A DNA stretch of 64,000 nt, taken from positions 89,051 to 153,050 of the forward strand of contig JACPKC010000006.1 of assembly GCA_016187225.1 (NCBI GenBank), written 5' to 3'. The translations under genes were made by a program, and so were the position numbers. The DNA is from Candidatus Berkelbacteria bacterium (GTDB taxonomy: Bacteria; Patescibacteriota; UBA1384; JACPKC01). Each line of letters begins with the position of its first letter. Position 1 is the first letter of the stretch. The notes under the pieces were generated by a model. That model saw only the letters and a program-made list of their open reading frames with translations. It had not been told where the DNA came from and did not search any database. This document shows, piece after piece, positions 4,761 to 26,099 of the stretch.

Positions 4761-5707
4761 TAGGAGTTGATCAGCGCCTCGAGAACGAGCGCGATGATCT
4801 TCTCGGCGGGGATCGCCGACGTCATCCCCTGGGGCGACGCGACGAGGTCGGCGGGGCCACCCCAGCCCTGCTCCAGCTCTGACAGGCGCGCCTTGAGGGC
4901 CGCCATGTCGAGCGGCGCGGCCGAGGAGTAGCGGGCCACCGTCCACTTCTGGACGGGGCTCTCGTCGGGGCCGGCGCCGGGACGCAGGAAGGACGGGCTG
5001 AAGGCGATGACGACAGGGACGCCGGTAGCGTACCCGACGTCGAAGCCGCGGGGGCTATTGCCCACCACGATCCCGACGCGGTTGCCCGGCAGCACGCTGA
5101 CCTGGAGGGAGGCTTTCGCCTTCTCCAACTCTTCGCGCGCCGTGAACGCGAAGCCACCTATGACCGCGTCGCTGACCTCACCGATCAGGAGGTTGGACAT
5201 CCAGTCCACCTTCTGGTCGATGGTCAGCTTGCGGTCGAAGCAGACGTAGTCGCTGGCGGTGATGGCCTCCTGGTTCTCCTGGACGACCTTCAGGTCGCGG
5301 GCCTGCGGCCCGAGCCCGTCCATGCGGCCGATGGCCGCCACGAGGCGGTTGTCGATCTGCTCGCTCTTGCCGGCCGCCCGGAGGGCGAGCACGGCCATCG
5401 CACCGATGCTGTCCTTGTCGGGCCGGACAGTGGCGAAGATGGAACCCGGCGCGGGCAGGTCGACCGTCAGCGCCGCCTCGATGGCGGACGTCCTCGGGTC
5501 GCCGGTTGGGCCGTGCTGCGGGTCGAGGTTGAACGAGCACCGCTTGGAGAGGGGCGGGCTCGTCACCTCGATCCCGTAGACCGGGGCGCCGGCGCCGAAC
5601 ACCTTCGCGTTGGCCTCGGCCGCGGCCGGCACCTTGTCCTCAGGCCTCGGGTCGAGGCTCGCGAAGATGTAGGTCTGGGTCGTCTGCGGGGAAGGCATGC
5701 CGTTCAT
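4760..5707 (-). CDS. hypothetical protein (315 aa, very GC-rich)
   Basis: Strong AAAGGAGG RBS 7 nt before the ATG. No family recognised. Confidence 0.6.
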   Translation of the reverse strand: MNGMPSPQTTQTYIFASLDPRPEDKVPAAAEANAKVFGAGAPVYGIEVTSPPLSKRCSFNLDPQHGPTGDPRTSAIEAALTVDLPAPGSIFATVRPDKDSIGAMAVLALRAAGKSEQIDNRLVAAIGRMDGLGPQARDLKVVQENQEAITASDYVCFDRKLTIDQKVDWMSNLLIGEVSDAVIGGFAFTAREELEKAKASLQVSVLPGNRVGIVVGNSPRGFDVGYATGVPVVIAFSPSFLRPGAGPDESPVQKWTVARYSSAAPLDMAALKARLSELEQGWGGPADLVASPQGMTSAIPAEKIIALVLEALINS

Positions 5708-20015: not shown

Positions 20016-21230
20016 TCAGTTTTTCACTCGCGTGAAGCCTAAGTTTTTTAACTTTTTCTGGTACTCACCTATCGAATAGAGTGAGCCGGTGCAAACAATG
20101 GGTAAAAAATTTAGCGTGAGTGCGGCTTCGAGCGCTTGACTTGGGTTCGGTTTGGCAAGAGCTTTAAGCCTGAAATGAGAAAAAATCTGCATGAGCTTAT
20201 TTAACGCAAAGTGGCGACGTGTTGCAGTTTTAAACTCTGTTGCGACCCAATTGATAGTAATCGGCAGGAGTGCTTTCAGCATCCCTTCAACATCCTTGCC
20301 ACACGAAAAATTAATTATACAATTCACGTTCGTATCAGAAAATATTCCTTGAATTGAGACTGACAGGGCTTCCGTTTTCTGCGGATTATGCGCGCCGTCT
20401 AAAATTACAAAACGTCTATCTCTCTGCCAGATTTCAAACCGGCCGGGCAGGGTCGCCGTGTCAAGCACTTTACGAACGTGAGTTTTTTGTATTTTATCCT
20501 TCGAACGTTCGGAAATTAATTGCAAAGCAGAAAAGGCAAGGGCGAGATTTTCTCGCTGGTGATTACCCAAAAGATTGAAACGCAAATTTCCCCAAATCCC
20601 GTTTTGTGTTTGCAGTGAAAGCAAAGTGCCTTTTAAGGTTGGATGAAATTCCGGTACAATTTTGCGCGGGTCGATCGAAGTCACCAGTGCCCCAACCTGC
20701 CTTGCTCGCTCATGGATTGGCCCAAGAATTTCAGATGCTTGATCTAATACAATAACTCGACTGCCGCGCTGAATAATGCCGGCCTTTTGGGTAGTAATTT
20801 CAACTAGGGTTTTGCCTAATATCCGGGTGTGGTCTAGGCCGATCCGCGTAATCACAACAATTTTGTCGCCCTGCATTGCATTTGTCGCATCGTATAATCC
20901 TCCTAAACCGGTTTCGACGACTGCATATTGAACACCTTGGTTTTTAAAAGCGACCAGAGCAGTGGCAACTAAAATTTCGAAATAAGTTGCCCGAACCGAC
21001 GTCCTTAAAACCTTTTTGAGCGCGAGAATGAAGCGCTTTTTGCTGATTAGTTGACTATTAATTTGAACCCGTTCTCGAATATCAATGAGATGCGGCGAAA
21101 GTTGAAGTCCAACCTTAAAATGATGGGCGGAAAGAAATTGGCTGATGAGCGTTGCCGTCGAACCTTTGCCAGATGTGCCCGCCACATGAATTATTTGCAT
21201 CGAACGTTCTGGATTGCCAAGCGCTTTCAA
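20016..21230 (-). CDS. folC: folylpolyglutamate synthase/dihydrofolate synthase (Mur ligase family)
   Basis: HVAGTSGKGST ATP-binding motif. Confidence 0.85.
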   Translation of the reverse strand: MKALGNPERSMQIIHVAGTSGKGSTATLISQFLSAHHFKVGLQLSPHLIDIRERVQINSQLISKKRFILALKKVLRTSVRATYFEILVATALVAFKNQGVQYAVVETGLGGLYDATNAMQGDKIVVITRIGLDHTRILGKTLVEITTQKAGIIQRGSRVIVLDQASEILGPIHERARQVGALVTSIDPRKIVPEFHPTLKGTLLSLQTQNGIWGNLRFNLLGNHQRENLALAFSALQLISERSKDKIQKTHVRKVLDTATLPGRFEIWQRDRRFVILDGAHNPQKTEALSVSIQGIFSDTNVNCIINFSCGKDVEGMLKALLPITINWVATEFKTATRRHFALNKLMQIFSHFRLKALAKPNPSQALEAALTLNFLPIVCTGSLYSIGEYQKKLKNLGFTRVKN

Positions 21231-21387
21231 AAGTTTTTTTGTTCGTTCTAGGCCAAGCGCGCCAGGAAAGCGTGTACTCCGACTATGCGGAACCAGGCGA
21301 TCTAAATATTCAACCGCTTCTTGAAATGTATTCGGGAAAAGTTGATGGGAAATAATTATACTCTGTGAAAAGTTTTGTCTTGGCGCT

Positions 21388-21680
21388 GTAATTATACACT
21401 TTGCGCGAACCTACTACGAACGGAAAACCGACTAAGGAAGCCAGCTCGCCGCCGCTCGCTAACACTCGCCGCCCAGCAAAAAAGTTTTCTCTGCGTTTCT
21501 GATTTCGCGCGCACCCGATTTTTTCTTCTAAAAGGAAAAGAAAACTTTTTTGCTGGCTTCTGCTCTCTCCGAGCAGGGCGGCGGGCTTGGCCTCTGTTTT
21601 TTGCAAGAACACGGCGGAATTCCCCCCACACCCCCCTTCCGCCGTGTTCTTGCGGGGACGGACGGAATTTTTGGCGGTGG
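21388..21680. repeat. ~290-bp inverted repeat, left copy
   Basis: About 90% identical to the reverse complement of 25724-26009. Contains a perfect 17-bp stem GCAAGAACACGGCGGAA/TTCCGCCGTGTTCTTGC with a C-rich loop, and an internal IR CAGCAAAAAAGTTTTC/GAAAACTTTTTTGCTG. Confidence 0.85.
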
Positions 21681-22634
21681 CTACTTTTCTAAATCTACTT
21701 CTTTATCTCCGAATTTCAAATTTTTCTTCGCAATCCACACAAATCCTTTTTCTGGTGTGATCACGGCAACATCAATTGAACCGCCGACGCCGGGCATATC
21801 ACCCGGGTCGCCTGCGATACCATCAGAAAATCTTTGAATGGCCGTAGTTGTTCCGATTGCCAAGGTGCTAAAATCAATGCCGTCCTGCAAAGTCATGGTA
21901 CCCCATTGGATGACGTATTCTAAACTCCTCAATTGTTTCTGAACTTCTTGCGAACCCATATCCGAAGCCATTTTTTGCATGACCGGCAAATTGCCAATTC
22001 GTCCATCAAAACCAAGAACGATTCTCGATACCACATCAATCTGACCTATCCAACTGGCACCATATTCTTGCCCTCGCTTTGTGCTATCTCTCTTGAGCTC
22101 AACATCGCCGGGAACATAAACCATCGCAACTTGGTGTGATTCATCCTGATTGTAACCAGCAACAATAAACTGCAACTGTTCTACACCAGCAACGCCTTCT
22201 TTTTGGATTCCTTTCGGGTCTTTGAATTTGAACTTAACATGACCCTTTTCTTCTTTGATCTCAATAATTTGACAGCCCTGTCGCTCCAAATCAGCTTTTA
22301 TTTGATTAGGAAGGATTTTTAACTGCTCTTTGTATTGATACTTTGTCTCAAAAAATTCTTTTATCTTTTGGGCGGTTTCAAGCATTGTTAATTTTTCGGT
22401 CTCGATACTTTTCTTAAACTCTTCGATAAACCTGCTTATGTTTTTCAAGACGCCATTTTCCGGCAAAAACGCAAGCCCCGCAACTATTAAACCTGCCCTA
22501 TCATTTATCTTGAAAACTTTTGACGCAGAATCGGAGCCGATTCTGCTCATACCTTTTTGATTTCGGTAGGACTGCCGACTATCAGCGGCTAAAACGATTC
22601 CTTCTGGTGTAGTTGTGTTGATTCCGAGACTCAT
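21681..22634 (-). CDS. proteasome beta-subunit-like Ntn hydrolase with a ~60-aa internal insertion
   Basis: N-terminal TTTPEGIVLAADSRQS resembles the proteasome-beta/HslV TTI..GVVLAADSRAT motif. C-terminal VGGSIDVAVITPEKG resembles GSGSNIDLCVI. Confidence 0.6.
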   Translation of the reverse strand: MSLGINTTTPEGIVLAADSRQSYRNQKGMSRIGSDSASKVFKINDRAGLIVAGLAFLPENGVLKNISRFIEEFKKSIETEKLTMLETAQKIKEFFETKYQYKEQLKILPNQIKADLERQGCQIIEIKEEKGHVKFKFKDPKGIQKEGVAGVEQLQFIVAGYNQDESHQVAMVYVPGDVELKRDSTKRGQEYGASWIGQIDVVSRIVLGFDGRIGNLPVMQKMASDMGSQEVQKQLRSLEYVIQWGTMTLQDGIDFSTLAIGTTTAIQRFSDGIAGDPGDMPGVGGSIDVAVITPEKGFVWIAKKNLKFGDKEVDLEK

Positions 22635-22640
22635 AGTATT

Positions 22641-23306
22641 TTATTTGTTAAGAAAATTGTTAATAATAAGTACCGCAATAATGGAATAAACAAGTGCGGT
22701 AAGGCTGTTTCCGATTATTGTGACATCCACCCAAGTCAATCCTGCGAGCAATAAAGCCCAGCTAAAGTTTCTAACAACTCCGGCGTCTTGAAATACCGTA
22801 TGCACAATGGCACCAATTCCTTTCGCTAATGCGTGTGTTGAAGTTTGACCAGATGACAGCGTGCCATTGAAATATCTGCCGATGGCCAAATTAACAGCTG
22901 TCTCAACAACAGTACGCAGATCATTTTCTATATTTGTGCCATCGGTTTTAAGCGCACCACCGTTGTAGCCAATGTTGTCAGATGTTGGCAACGATACGGT
23001 TACTCCGTTCATAAGTTCCGTCGGCTGTTTAAGCTGTTGTGGTGGTAACGATCCGGCCCGATACTGCATAGGGAAAAAGGAGACTCCTAAAAAATCCAGC
23101 GCCTTGTCAGTGAGCAGTATGGAACGCGTCTTTTGCGTTCCTTTCCGCAGATAACCGTGTCTTGTAAGTGCGGCGATGATTCCAAGGATAGATTTGTTGT
23201 CCGAAACACTAATCCCACTCACCATTTCGCGGAGAGTTGGAGAACTCCCGTATTTGAGCCGGTAGCCACTGATGTATTGGAGTAATTTCTTCTGATTATC
23301 TGTCAT
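22641..23306 (-). CDS. LexA-type winged-helix DNA-binding domain protein with C-terminal transmembrane helices (no S24 peptidase domain)
   Basis: N-terminus KKLLQYISGYRLKYGSSPTLREMVSGISVSDNKSILGIIAALTRHGYLRK fits the LexA DNA-binding domain pattern. Last ~50 aa are hydrophobic. 6-bp gap to the downstream Ntn hydrolase gene. Confidence 0.55.
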   Translation of the reverse strand: MTDNQKKLLQYISGYRLKYGSSPTLREMVSGISVSDNKSILGIIAALTRHGYLRKGTQKTRSILLTDKALDFLGVSFFPMQYRAGSLPPQQLKQPTELMNGVTVSLPTSDNIGYNGGALKTDGTNIENDLRTVVETAVNLAIGRYFNGTLSSGQTSTHALAKGIGAIVHTVFQDAGVVRNFSWALLLAGLTWVDVTIIGNSLTALVYSIIAVLIINNFLNK

Positions 23307-23371
23307 ATAAAACCATTATACTCCACCAAATGGTGGAGTCAAGTGATTTTCGCGGCCTATCCTGTGGATAA

Positions 23372-24199
23372 TTAGTAACCGAGAGCTAACTGGTCGAGCA
23401 TATCTGGCCCTTTTTCCTTGCCTACTTCTTGGTAAATACTTAAAACTTCCTCGTATGTACCCTTACCGCCAACCATGTCCCAAAATTCCTTTCCGACCAA
23501 AACCTCGTTTTCCAAATCCATGTAATTAAGAATGAAACTATGACGATACGTTGATTTTTCGATACCATAGGGATTGTATGCGGTAGCATAAAACGCTTTT
23601 GTCTTTCCGTACTTCGCGTGAGTGATTGCATGAATTTGCAAAAGTCGTCCCGTTGCTTCCAAGCATTGGCCCTTGTTCGGCTTAGGACTTTTGATTTCGA
23701 AAAACCACTCCTCGCCGGATTTTGTCTCAATGTATAAATCAGCAATGCTTACGCGCTCAACGCCCGCAACAGTTTTACTTAAATCAACAACTTCTTTTAC
23801 TAAATCGGGATATTTCGATTTCATCCCACCGCTTCCGATCCTGTTCGTTATATCTTCAATACGCTTAATTGCTTTTGCCGTAACAACACCTCGAACGCGA
23901 TATCCGCGTTCAGCGTTTTTGTGAACAGATTTTGCTACAAGACGCGCACACTCTTCAAAGGTCGTTCCGAGCTTCGTGGAAAAGGAGCGTTCAAATTCGC
24001 TTACTCGCAAAATTCCGTCCGGCAAAAGCGATTCGTGAAATGGTTTGAGATCTCCGGCTTTCGATTCGTTGCGCAACGGACGCAATTGCTTAGGGTCGAA
24101 ACCATTTTGCTTGGCTTCATCAACCATCCCTTGGATAAATCCTTCAAGATAGCCCTTGATTGTGTTTCTGACTTCTTTGGTAATCATATTCTTTGCCAA
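23372..24199 (-). CDS. putative Type II restriction endonuclease (PD-(D/E)xK-like)
   Basis: Overlaps the methyltransferase gene by 16 bp. Candidate D...EIK catalytic motif (IADLYIET...FFEIKSPK). Confidence 0.5.
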   Translation of the reverse strand: MAKNMITKEVRNTIKGYLEGFIQGMVDEAKQNGFDPKQLRPLRNESKAGDLKPFHESLLPDGILRVSEFERSFSTKLGTTFEECARLVAKSVHKNAERGYRVRGVVTAKAIKRIEDITNRIGSGGMKSKYPDLVKEVVDLSKTVAGVERVSIADLYIETKSGEEWFFEIKSPKPNKGQCLEATGRLLQIHAITHAKYGKTKAFYATAYNPYGIEKSTYRHSFILNYMDLENEVLVGKEFWDMVGGKGTYEEVLSIYQEVGKEKGPDMLDQLALGY

Positions 24200-25377
24200 A
24201 TTAAAATGCTTTCGTAAAATGCACCTTCGCGTCTTCCAGTTCGGCGGTTCACATGACGCTCAACACGTCCAATTTCCTTAAATCCCGCGTCTTCTGCTTT
24301 GTAAAGTCCGTATTTGTCGTTTACAACAATGAGAGCCAAACCTTTTGGGGCCATATATTTACGAGTATGGAGCAAAACGTCATTTATGCCTTTGATATAG
24401 CCCTGTTTTGCTTGCTGGGACTGTCCATTTTTTGCAGGCCCGATTTCTTTCGTCTCGTTATTTTTTAGACCAAGTAATTCGTAAGCGTATTTATGCTGTT
24501 CGTGGTAATCAATTAAACCAATGTAGGGGGGAGAAGTAAAAACCATATCAATGCCCTTCGGTAGCTCAACCTCGCGCGAATCCGCATGGTTTACAACTAC
24601 TTTTGCTTTTGTCTTAATTTTAGAAAATTCTTTAACGCGATCTAGAGTATCAATAGTGTAGCGCGATAAGAATTTATATGCTTCTTCAACTGGTTGGCAA
24701 GTTCGTTGGTGTTTATAGCATTGATACGGTTTTATCTGCGGCTCTTTGGGAAAATCTAAGTCATAGTGTGTAACGAGCCGAGCAGAACGCGCCGAACGAG
24801 ATAAAACAATTCTTAGTAAATCTTGGTAAGTATAATCCTTAATCAATCGCGAATAACATAAAAGCTCTTTTTGCGTGTTCGGCGCAAACCATTTTTGTAT
24901 ATATTCGTTTTTGGTCGAAAACAACTTATTTACCTTCTCGTCTTTGGAAAATTTACTTTTGTAAGTATCAAGGCGTTTCAAAATATCGTAAATTTCTTTT
25001 TCAAGAAGCGGAACATCATAATCGGCAGTTTTAACTTTTGAAAGTAAAACATTAAAAATAGATATGTCGGTGCCGACCGAATCTATGCCGAGAGCATTTG
25101 CCTCAACCAAAGTCGTTCCGCTTCCCGCGAACGGATCATAAACAAGGGTTGGTTTATATTTCCGCAAAAATATCTCTACAAGTTGTGGAATGAATTTACC
25201 GAGATAAGGATGTAAGCGATGAACATGCTTTGTTCTCTGATATTCCGGCAAATCGCTCTCGCGCCAATTCAAATTTAATGTTTCAAGGGCGGTTTCCGGT
25301 TTTACACTCGCAAAATCGGTCAGCGGTTGCTGATTATATTGCTTTGCTATTTTTTGTGCGATTGTGTTGTCGTACAT
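24184..25377 (-). CDS. DNA methyltransferase (N6-adenine/N4-cytosine class, alpha architecture)
   Basis: Motif I DPFAGSGTT and motif IV TSPPY. Confidence 0.85.
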   Translation of the reverse strand: MYDNTIAQKIAKQYNQQPLTDFASVKPETALETLNLNWRESDLPEYQRTKHVHRLHPYLGKFIPQLVEIFLRKYKPTLVYDPFAGSGTTLVEANALGIDSVGTDISIFNVLLSKVKTADYDVPLLEKEIYDILKRLDTYKSKFSKDEKVNKLFSTKNEYIQKWFAPNTQKELLCYSRLIKDYTYQDLLRIVLSRSARSARLVTHYDLDFPKEPQIKPYQCYKHQRTCQPVEEAYKFLSRYTIDTLDRVKEFSKIKTKAKVVVNHADSREVELPKGIDMVFTSPPYIGLIDYHEQHKYAYELLGLKNNETKEIGPAKNGQSQQAKQGYIKGINDVLLHTRKYMAPKGLALIVVNDKYGLYKAEDAGFKEIGRVERHVNRRTGRREGAFYESILIWQRI

Positions 25378-25381
25378 AGTT

Positions 25382-25582
25382 TTATTTTTTCAAAAGATCA
25401 TCAACAGACACATCAAGGGCTTTCGCAATCCTTTGGATTGTCTCAATAGTCGGGTTGGGGCTTTCATCCAACTCTATCTTAACAACCGTATTGAGCGACA
25501 AATCAGCAAGTTTTGAGAGCTTATCTTGCGAAAGCCCCTTGTCTTGTCTAAATCGTTTTATGTTCTTGCCTATTGTGGACAT
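25382..25582 (-). CDS. XRE-family HTH controller (C) protein of the R-M operon
   Basis: 66-aa HTH protein (GLSQDKLSKLADLSLNTVVKIE) 4 bp upstream of the methyltransferase gene. Confidence 0.75.
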   Translation of the reverse strand: MSTIGKNIKRFRQDKGLSQDKLSKLADLSLNTVVKIELDESPNPTIETIQRIAKALDVSVDDLLKK

Positions 25583-25723
25583 AGTAGATTATAATGTATG
25601 GAAAGTGATATAATACTTGTATGGCTTGCATATCAATAATATCAACTTTCCATTCTTTTAACAAATTAGGGAGTTCCTTTACCTTTTCCGCGCAGGGAGG
25701 GAGGGGCAAGGAAAAGAATAATG

Positions 25724-26009
25724 CCACCGCCAAAAATTCCGTCCGTCCCCGCAAGAACACGGCGGAAGGGGGGTGTGGGGGGAATTCCGCCGTGTTCTTG
25801 CAAAAAACAGAGGCCAAGCCCGCCGCCCTGCTCGGAGAGAGCCGAACCCAGCAAAAAAGTTTTCCTTTCCTTTTAGAAGAAAAAATCCGGCGCGCGCAAA
25901 AGAAAAGCAGAGAAAACTTTTTTGCTGGCTGGCGAGCGTCAGCGAGCGGCGGCGGAGCGAATCAGTTGCCGTTTCGTTCAAAAAAGGTTCGCGCAAAGTG
26001 TATAATTAC
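25724..26009. repeat. ~290-bp inverted repeat, right copy
   Basis: Reverse complement of 21388-21680. Outer end is 4 bp from the 3' end of tRNA-Leu(TAG). Confidence 0.85.
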
Positions 26010-26013
26010 TACT

Positions 26014-26099
26014 GGTGCCCGGGAGAGGACTCGAACCTCCACGCCCAGAGGGCACATGGTCCTAAGCCATGCCTGTCTGCCAGTTCCAGCACCCGGGCA
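26014..26099 (-). tRNA. tRNA-Leu(TAG)
   Basis: Long variable arm. Anticodon stem CATGG/CCATG, loop CTTAGGA. Acceptor GCCCGGG/CCCGGGC. Confidence 0.8.

Follow-up and report, generated by a model that had tools for sequence, protein, structure and literature searches.

Bacteria of the candidate phyla radiation (CPR, Patescibacteria) have tiny genomes in which few plasmids, transposons and conjugative elements have been recognised. Furuta, Abe & Kobayashi (2010, PMC2853133) described restriction-modification (R-M) units with long inverted repeats on both sides as transposon-like; the repeats of those units measure tens of bp (e.g. 60/65), are unique to each unit and are accompanied by an 8-bp target duplication. 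Here we analyse a stretch of 64,000 nucleotides from a Candidatus Berkelbacteria bacterium (contig JACPKC010000006.1), hereafter the window, in which a 4.6-kb island (21388-26009) next to a tRNA-Leu gene carries an R-M operon between two inverted copies of a structured repeat that we name E. As in the units of that study, the R-M system has no linked mobility gene, the inverted repeats are imperfect and the insertion is shown by comparison with an empty site. Unlike their repeats, E is 140-330 nt long and structured, belongs to one family found in more than 100 genomes, has a tRNA-mimicking arm and is not accompanied by a duplication.

We hold with high confidence that the island is an insertion of horizontal origin, and that E is a family with a common architecture and a conserved structure. 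As to its movement, we consider it somewhat probable that the island is a non-autonomous cassette, mobilised by a serine recombinase and targeted to tRNA 3' ends via its tRNA-mimicking arms. The interest lies less in the single island than in the E family that it exposes.

The island as an insertion at tRNA-Leu

The two arms of the island (21388-21682 and 25716-26009) are inverted copies of each other. They align by blastn over 295 columns (21388-21681 with 26009-25723) at 89.5% identity with an E-value of 6e-109, and no third copy is found by blastn within the window. The identity varies along the alignment, from a fully matching outer 25 nt through a stretch of ~100 nt at 70-74% to an inner ~165 nt that again agree at 100%. 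Repeat detection resolves three sub-blocks, 21503-21681/25723-25901 (179 nt, 97%), 21447-21500/25901-25954 (54 nt, 91%) and 21388-21425/25972-26009 (38 nt, 87%). Each copy contains a perfect 17-bp hairpin (21603-21619/21637-21653 and 25751-25767/25785-25801; loop TTCCCCCCACACCCCCC) and a second internal inverted repeat of 26 nt, and the fold energy of both copies lies ~5 standard deviations below that of shuffles. The flanking repeats, the hairpin and the second internal repeat had all been proposed in a first-pass annotation made from the letters alone, which also suggested the folding, and each of them stands. The landmarks are as follows, where loci of other genomes are cited by number (prefix L).

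21388..21682, plus strand: left E, the distal or operon-end copy (blastn and inverted-repeat detection; nhmmer, hmm 5-298, score 187)
25716..26009, minus strand: right E, the tRNA-proximal or operon-start copy (blastn, inverted-repeat detection, nhmmer)
26013..26098, minus strand: tRNA-Leu(TAG), the landmark of the insertion (ARAGORN; Rfam, 48.6 bits)
20016..21359, minus strand: folC, parted from the tRNA gene by the insertion (synteny with L125/L126)

The left E has its 5' end outward and meets the stop codon of the final cargo gene with its 3' end. The right E adjoins the 3' end of the tRNA gene, as had been noted earlier; its outer end (26009) is 3 nt from the CCA end of tRNA-Leu, not 4 bp. 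The R-M part has a GC content of 0.35-0.40 against ~0.45-0.50 in the surroundings.

The best relative of the host's FolC among 5.8 billion proteins searched is only 43% identical, so a distant syntenic relative was used instead of a close one. In this relative (P0007, loci L125 and L126) the gene order of the window is kept over more than 13 kb, with ruvA, recG, comEA, tRNA-Leu(tag), folC, CofD, miaA, comM, a pseudouridine synthase gene, tRNA-Gly and tRNA-Cys. The distance from tRNA-Leu(tag) to the folC start in L125 is 29 nt with no island in between, and neither E nor any of the five cargo genes is present in L125 or L126. The empty tRNA-Leu/folC junction thus marks the whole 21388-26009 segment as an insertion. 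A presence/absence comparison at this junction had been suggested together with the idea of a composite mobile element, and the empty site, albeit in a distant relative, speaks for that idea. A second locus, P0010, was discarded for this comparison because it is not syntenic.

The closest counterparts of the inserted DNA are found in other CPR lineages. The left E and the adjacent gene for an N-terminal nucleophile (Ntn) hydrolase share 93.4% DNA identity over 1255 nt with a Magasanikbacteria contig (L051), the Ntn protein itself being 97.5% identical in amino acids. The methylase and the endonuclease match those of a Parcubacteria contig (L078) at 92% and 91% amino acid identity, with 79% DNA identity over 2.4 kb. 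E-cassette DNA is thus 79-93% identical between hosts whose housekeeping proteins are only about 40% identical. Exact-protein look-ups for folC, comEA and the Ntn gene gave no match, and YvcK/CofD alone led to a contig. The only public contig with the host's CofD/FolC region, a Logan unitig (L001, 1-27), stops 27 nt into E; this tells of assembly breakage at the repeat and not of presence or absence of the island.

The insertion also seems to touch folC. Its N-terminal 35 codons (21231-21359, minus strand) are conserved relative to the syntenic relative and lie upstream of the first canonical start (TTG, 21230), and no in-frame ATG, GTG or TTG for them is found back to at least 21398, inside E. 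The original start seems, from the sequence, to have been removed or replaced by the insertion, so that either a non-canonical start is in use or the protein is truncated at its N-terminus. A 15-nt near-copy of the E terminus is found 36 nt outside the left E (21353-21367 versus 21389-21403; TAATTATACTCTGTG versus TAATTATACACTTTG). On the other strand, both the near-copy and the terminus read as TATAAT boxes facing folC. The near-copy may be left over from a former end, or may be an outward-facing promoter from which folC is now transcribed.

The E family and its conserved structure

The 21-mer around the hairpin loop (ATTCCCCCCACACCCCCCTTC) has exact matches in at least 120 stretches of species-representative genomes. 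Among the matches listed, most titles name CPR/Patescibacteria, some say only 'bacterium' and few bear other labels; the lineages named are Saccharibacteria, Parcubacteria groups, Microgenomates groups, WWE3 and Peregrinibacteria. A profile built from the matches (nhmmer) detects 46 full-length copies of about 290-330 nt and many short ones. In the short subfamily a ~27-nt outer motif and the hairpin are kept and the middle domain (P1-P3, described below) is missing. A structured repeat, perhaps of the miniature inverted-repeat transposable element (MITE) kind, captured twice was among the options raised at first pass. Its structural part is borne out by a widespread structured family around variable cargo: E does occur at many unrelated loci, usually with cargo rather than bare.

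Where two E copies are found in one stretch, they are almost always convergent, with the 5' ends out and the 3' ends in. Between 19 and 20 such pairs enclose 1.3-4.5 kb, with cargo that varies by locus and genes that are co-oriented within each pair. The cargo is mostly R-M, including C5 and N6/N4 methylases, HaeII, NgoPII and HinP1I enzymes and Vsr; AAA_15/21 ATPases, ABC transporters and redox enzymes are also carried. At the operon-start side the order is E, a second conserved module (X), an AT-rich promoter region and often a controller (C)-type helix-turn-helix (HTH) gene, the sense strand of E lying 79-263 nt upstream of the C gene in 27 of the 34 evaluable loci. At the operon-end side the last stop codon abuts the 3' end of E (median 21 nt, many within ±10 nt). 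Operon-end, convergent copies outnumber operon-start copies by 69 to 35, and some cassettes have a distal E only or a degenerate proximal one.

No match to E was found in phage and plasmid collections. One 4.4-kb contig of IMG/VR contains it and consists just of E-RM-E, so a phage vehicle is unsupported. Many E copies are located at contig ends. E breaks short-read assemblies, and the cassette and defence content of CPR genomes is therefore probably under-assembled.

The same features, a short, conserved, multi-copy sequence with internal inverted repeats that often ends contigs, could be expected from a MITE of a transposase-type insertion sequence, two copies of which formed a composite transposon, all the more as R-M units with long inverted repeats have been called transposon-like (PMC2853133). 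We regard this as very improbable. No target-site duplication is present at either end in the pairs examined (window, L012, L019 and L051), E itself has no terminal inverted repeats, and no transposase occurs among 66 cargo proteins or the neighbour clusters, which likewise disposes of a classical transposon. Nor would a MITE explain why the orientation is almost always convergent instead of random, or why the inner boundary abuts the last stop codon within about ±10 nt in many loci. Least credible of all is an invertible, phase-variable switch, another option of the first-pass annotation. Inverted repeats of 295 bp with 165 identical inner nt would permit one, and serine recombinases are linked to the E family; yet the promoter region lies inside the repeats, so that inversion between symmetric ends changes nothing obvious, no invertase is encoded in the window, and in all pairs the cargo forms a whole operon with a single orientation. 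The host is represented here by one assembly and by a Logan unitig that breaks at the repeat.

A consensus structure was derived with RNAalifold and pair counts on 38 full-length copies, the covariance analysis having been suggested with the folding. In the consensus, helix P1 closes a three-way junction which holds a long AT-rich hairpin (P2) and a small one (P3), and P4 is the 17-bp hairpin. Over 47 pairs, 96.2% of cells are paired, compared with 47-55% when the partners are slid by 1-3 columns, and 26 pairs are changed on both sides against 5-10 in the slid controls. None of 500 shuffles reached the observed values for cells paired, both-sides changes or covariation score, and 1 of 500 did so for further pair types. 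The upper stem and loop of P4 are invariant, while its lower stem covaries (CG 19, AU 11 and UA 5 at one pair). Module X, present at the operon-start side only, is a further hairpin; 13 or more loci keep it after E, with stem variants that compensate on both sides (CTTTTCC/GGAAAAG, GTTGCCC/GGGCAAC, CTTGCCC/GGGCAAG and CTTGCCC/GGGTAAG). In the window the elements are placed as follows.

Within 21443..21587, plus strand: left E, P1 (21443-21452/21578-21587), P2 (21471-21492/21534-21558) and P3 (21563-21565/21571-21573)
21603..21653, plus strand: left E, P4, 17-bp stem with a 17-nt mirror-repeat loop, TTCCCCCCACACCCCCC
Minus strand: right E, P1 (25958-25949/25826-25817), P2 (25930-25909/25870-25846) and P4 (25801-25785/25767-25751)
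25668..25716, minus strand: module X, hairpin CUUUUCC/GGAAAAG with C-rich loop UUGCCCCUCCCUCCCUGCGC, then GUAAAGGAACUCCCU

The P4 loop is a perfect mirror repeat (TTCCCCCCACACCCCCCTT), and mirror repeats of this kind are able to form triplex DNA.

Such a structure raises the question whether E together with module X is primarily a transcribed RNA that regulates the cargo, whether by terminating or insulating transcription, by directing RNA processing or as a small RNA whose loops are C-rich. The inverted layout would then follow from a need for one such RNA at either end, and mobility would come by unrelated means. Such an RNA would be expected to show the strong covariation seen in the four helices and in the hairpin of module X. 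Both copies point inward, so that transcripts from either flank carry the sense strand; E is often found downstream of a tRNA gene that points the same way, and in the window no terminator separates the two; and sense E precedes 27 of 34 C genes at the distance given above. G:U pairs exceed A:C pairs on the sense strand by 67 to 35, but this asymmetry rests largely on one pair, without which the counts are 41 to 35. With so modest an excess the counts decide neither the strand nor between RNA and single-stranded DNA. Against an RNA, E matches no Rfam (15) family at the gathering score (only chance-level miRNA matches appear at E-values up to 10), and neither direction shows a recognisable canonical intrinsic terminator, P4 having no U-tract directly after its stem on either strand. 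The P1-P3 domain is absent from a whole subfamily, degenerate copies without P4 still precede intact operons (L127), and about 6 of 138 copies have the loop in flipped orientation, G-rich on the sense strand (L007, L030, L031, L050, L081 and the second copy of L111). The tRNA-mimicking 23-nt arm is also left unexplained. Regulation by RNA as the whole purpose of E is thus improbable in our judgement.

Termini, tRNA genes and serine recombinases

The outer boundaries of E are sharp. A tRNA gene lies within 250 nt outside the 5' end in 19 of 106 evaluable copies, a strong enrichment that involves many different tRNAs. Related cassettes with the same LexA-like and Ntn genes as the window have tRNA-Gly(ccc) as their neighbour in L127, tRNA-Arg(gcg) in L128 and L129 and tRNA-Leu(tag) in the window, and lie between tRNA-Ala and tRNA-Val in L051. 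The termini of the island have the following features.

21388..21410, plus strand: left E, outer 23-nt arm (GTAATTATACACTTTGCGCGAAC), reverse complement GTTCG-N18, CGAAC at 21406-21410
26009-25987, minus strand: right E, outer 23-nt arm
21381..21387, plus strand: TGGCGCT just outside left E, reverse complement AGCGCCA, resembling a CCA end in direct orientation with tRNA-Leu

At both ends the repeat boundary is exactly 23 nt from the G of a GTTCG motif, which mirrors that of tRNA: the arm resembles the T-loop/acceptor half of a tRNA with 4-5 bp of extra spacing. At the island's distal end the AGCGCCA is followed by the folC-side trailer, and NNCCA motifs after the 23-nt arm are also seen in L012, L028, L032, L051, L056 and L111. 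From its sequence, AGCGCCA may be the remnant of an attR site.

The commonest neighbour cluster of E is a large serine recombinase (LSR), found in 13 loci just outside the 5' end of E and divergent from it. It has the domains Resolvase, Recombinase and Zn_ribbon_recom, with its best NCBIfam similarity, far below cut-off, to CcrB/XisF. In nine related loci the LSR gene just outside E is itself flanked by inverted repeats of 90-148 nt with 93-100% identity. One outer end of this unit touches the E terminus and the other touches a real tRNA 3' end in seven of eight loci, and the LSR reading frame typically runs into or up to the adjacent tRNA gene. In 8 of 8 loci the shared repeat sequence begins 18-19 nt past the GTTC of the real tRNA on one side and exactly 23 nt past the GTTCG of E on the other. 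In serine integrases the ZD (zinc-ribbon) motif is 5 bp nearer to the crossover in attB than in attP (PMC3783163). Read by this rule, the offset of 23 versus 18-19 nt would make the E terminus an attP-type arm which mimics the 3' half of a tRNA, and by analogy the GTTCG motif of the arm would be the ZD motif. The identity of the two termini despite the diverged 100 nt next to them is what a shared recognition site predicts.

Eight LSR units, of about 1.6-1.7 kb and usually wedged between the tRNA 3' end and the E terminus, are located as follows.

L012, 4994-6720: LSR unit
L051, 5639-7365: LSR unit
L056, 3641-5363: LSR unit
L028, 5997-7601: LSR unit
L032, 5987-7556: LSR unit
L059, 3120-4817: LSR unit
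L111, 3873-5566: LSR unit
L005, 4281-6291: LSR unit

In L012, L051 and L028 the antisense tRNA gene contains the end of the reading frame, which in L056 lies 4 nt from that gene; the flanking repeat of L005 exceeds 300 nt and extends into two E copies. At three further loci, L034 (373 region), L047 (401 region) and L076 (2816 region), the tRNA 3' end, 10-33 nt of LSR-unit repeat and internal E are fused. Lacking both the LSR and the E terminus, these fusions look as if they came from deletion or imprecise excision. Direct repeats of a tRNA 3' end in L051, considered as att duplications, were rejected since only two tRNA-Pro isoacceptor genes had been matched.

In the mechanism that we favour, the 23-nt arms would be attP-type half-sites of LSRs, and circularisation would join the two arms of a cassette into a palindromic attP of ~48 bp. 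With a tRNA 3' end serving as attB, integration would occur there or next to it, the enzyme acting in trans. The window copy would be non-autonomous and possibly fixed. Recombination inside E would also reshuffle cargo, as suggested by the chimeric E copies: the outer ~100-nt segments of the two partners in the window resemble different subfamilies. The weakest step is the structured core, which may act as a single-stranded nucleic acid. Our best guess, offered tentatively, is that the sense RNA of E would insulate the cargo, the toxic endonuclease operon included, from read-through out of the tRNA gene or the flank, in view of the inward sense orientation at both ends and of the insertion directly behind tRNA genes. 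Our confidence in any specific role for the core is low.

Several observations weigh against this mechanism. No recombinase gene is present in the 64-kb window, so this copy moves in trans or not at all. At its tRNA-proximal junction the GTTC of the tRNA and the E boundary are 27 nt apart instead of 18, and the proximal E has no TGGCGCT like that of the distal end. An exact attL/attR pair could therefore not be assigned in the window, where the distal end fits P(23)+NCCA+trailer and the proximal end is 9 nt off the ideal B(18)+P'(23). In L127-L129 and many related cassettes E is distal only or the proximal copy is degenerate, and a palindromic two-arm attP is thus not universal. The inner halves of the LSR-flanking repeats have no consistent mirror motif, which leaves the pairing of half-sites ambiguous. 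No head-to-head junction of E termini, as expected of a circle or attP, was found for two subfamilies in JGI metagenome contigs, assembled contigs being a weak test. The flipped loops and the modest G:U excess described above count on the same side. An LSR att site needs only ~50 bp, so the model leaves a conserved, structured core of 120-270 nt unexplained.

A last difficulty for the favoured mechanism comes from L128, where a 243-nt direct repeat suggests homologous or Campbell-type insertion. The repeat (860-1102 and 5344-5586) is 100% identical and brackets an array of HTH, restriction endonuclease, methyltransferase, LexA-like and Ntn genes and E. Its first copy begins with the final two bases of tRNA-Arg(gcg) and its second directly behind the E terminus. 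The 19/23 geometry is present here too. By its sequence it looks like a long target duplication or the product of a single-crossover insertion. The latter would be expected if E were simply portable homology, with taken-up DNA installed or swapped by RecA-type recombination between E copies or shared flanks. Chimeric E copies, whose outer ~100 nt belong to differing subfamilies and whose inner 165 nt are identical, agree with such exchange. So does the comparison of the window with L051, which have E and the Ntn gene in common at 93% and differ in their termini, in the LexA-like gene (45%) and in their unrelated R-M genes; a ComEA-like competence protein of the host is moreover encoded beside the site. 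But homology alone gives no account of the first insertion at different tRNA genes in E-less genomes. It also leaves unexplained the sharp boundary 23 nt from GTTCG in every locus, the identical partner termini beside diverged sequence, the recurrent LSR at the E boundary, and the covarying helices with their invariant loop. As the sole mechanism it is in our view unlikely. From the chimeric copies and the partial cargo swaps, homologous recombination inside E probably also operates and may be a main route of exchange; it could well act alongside the site-specific route.

A broader proposal, which we put forward only tentatively, is that E cassettes and LSR units together form a CPR-wide cassette exchange platform, integron-like but based on serine recombinases. 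The attP arms, as mimics of tRNA halves, would let cassettes dock at tRNA 3' ends, and the structured core would be a new nucleic-acid module for transfer, synapsis or insulation.

Cargo, significance and comparison with known systems

The five cargo genes of the window are all on the minus strand and co-oriented.

25382..25582, minus strand: cargo gene 1, controller (C) HTH protein, 66 aa (Pfam HTH_3, E-value 5e-14; PADLOC Control_protein)
24184..25377, minus strand: cargo gene 2, N6/N4 DNA methyltransferase, 397 aa (Pfam N6_N4_Mtase; PADLOC MTase_II, E-value 2e-91)
23372..24199, minus strand: cargo gene 3, Type II restriction endonuclease of the TdeIII family, 275 aa (Pfam RE_TdeIII, E-value 5e-61 over the full profile; PADLOC REase_II)
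22641..23306, minus strand: cargo gene 4, protein of 221 aa, N-terminal winged helix of LexA type, C-terminus hydrophobic (Pfam LexA_DNA_bind, 23.9 bits against a cut-off of 23.7)
21681..22634, minus strand: cargo gene 5, 317-aa proteasome-like Ntn hydrolase (Pfam Proteasome, 21.8 bits, below the cut-off of 22.4)
25636..25664, minus strand: candidate promoter TTGTTA-17-TATTAT with TG in the AT-rich spacer before the C gene (consensus scan only)

With a controller at the operon head, a methyltransferase of the (S/D)PPY type (SPPY at residue 282) and a cognate endonuclease, the cargo is by its sequence an ordinary Type II controller-methyltransferase-endonuclease (C-M-R) system. The spacer before the C gene (25583-25667) is AT-rich, with imperfect inverted repeats and a promoter-like site. 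The C-M-R assignment of the first-pass annotation agrees with the Pfam and PADLOC matches. The endonuclease it had put down as a putative PD-(D/E)xK enzyme is more precisely a member of the TdeIII family by the profile match listed above. The LexA-like and Ntn-hydrolase genes it named are present too, with matches at and below the Pfam cut-off, respectively.

Neither of these last two proteins is matched by a PADLOC model, and their NCBIfam scores are far below cut-off (LexA, 26 versus 111 bits; archaeal proteasome beta, 22.5 versus 224 bits). The Ntn hydrolase has about 2000 homologs with 65-97% identity across CPR classes, and is far better conserved than the housekeeping proteins of the same hosts. 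The pair also occurs beside R-M systems in L051 and L127-L132, so that a two-gene module, composed of a ~183-221-aa protein and a ~317-322-aa Ntn hydrolase, recurs in CPR next to differing R-M systems. These include Type II systems and a pair of methylase and ResIII helicase. The LexA-type winged helix is recognised by Pfam in the window and L051 copies, and the window copy has the hydrophobic tail. Positions of the module are given below.

Window, 21681-23306: LexA-like/Ntn module
L051, 807-2344: LexA-like/Ntn module
L127, 6326-7863: LexA-like/Ntn module
L128, 3501-5038: LexA-like/Ntn module
L130, 698-2235: LexA-like/Ntn module
L131, 6448-7969: LexA-like/Ntn module

The E family offers a vehicle of CPR gene exchange that can be tracked by sequence, a near-invariant 21-mer marking R-M and accessory cassettes in more than 100 species-level genomes from many CPR classes. 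If the platform proposal is true, this would be a main route for the trade of defence genes between tiny, plasmid-poor genomes. The family also makes it testable whether tRNA-half mimics serve as attP arms of LSRs, and whether LSRs act in trans on cassettes without a recombinase. It further prompts the questions of how a DNA element makes use of a covarying structure of 120-270 nt at its ends, and of why R-M systems are accompanied by a proteasome-like Ntn hydrolase and a membrane protein with a winged helix. The recombinase/site pairs could serve as genetic tools for organisms which have almost none.

In the open-access literature we found no description of E, of its loop sequence or of a serine-recombinase cassette system in CPR, and the family is apparently undescribed. 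Bacterial MITEs such as Correia/CREE, RUP, BOX and REP-type elements are likewise short, highly repeated and hairpin-rich, and can affect transcription of their neighbours. They are restricted to a species or genus and mostly solo, and the mobile ones show terminal inverted repeats and target duplications, whereas E spans many CPR classes, forms convergent pairs around cargo and has neither terminal repeats nor target duplications.

Tycheposons (bioRxiv 10.1101/2020.12.28.424599) are similar in being small cargo elements of streamlined genomes beside specific tRNA genes, with a partial-tRNA-like far end, stacked arrays and frequent degenerate remnants. Unlike E cassettes, they mostly encode their own tyrosine recombinase, possess replication modules and are flanked by direct partial tRNA copies. 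With integron cassettes (attC) and pdif modules, E cassettes share the organisation as discrete gene modules, poor in promoters or self-contained, between recombination sites, the enzyme being encoded elsewhere. Like the distal E, attC is conserved in structure, has covarying stems and begins right after the stop codon of an open reading frame. In contrast to attC, the sequence of E is conserved too, its pairs are inverted and it is 2-5 times longer; and no IntI or Xer tyrosine recombinase is found among the recurrent neighbours of E.

By their sequences, E cassettes can also be likened to LSR elements, the recombination itself being predicted. Phage attP/attB systems, SCCmec with its ccr genes and Tn4451-type elements have an LSR of the same domain architecture and, like E cassettes, no target duplication. 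Between E and tRNA the half-site motif is shifted by 4-5 bp, which recalls the shift between attP and attB. We know of no LSR site that needs 120-270 nt of conserved structured sequence, and the E-linked recombinase differs from that of LSR elements in lying outside the cassette, in an inverted-repeat unit of its own (repeats of 90-148 nt). In their variable cargo, E cassettes resemble cassette chromosomes.

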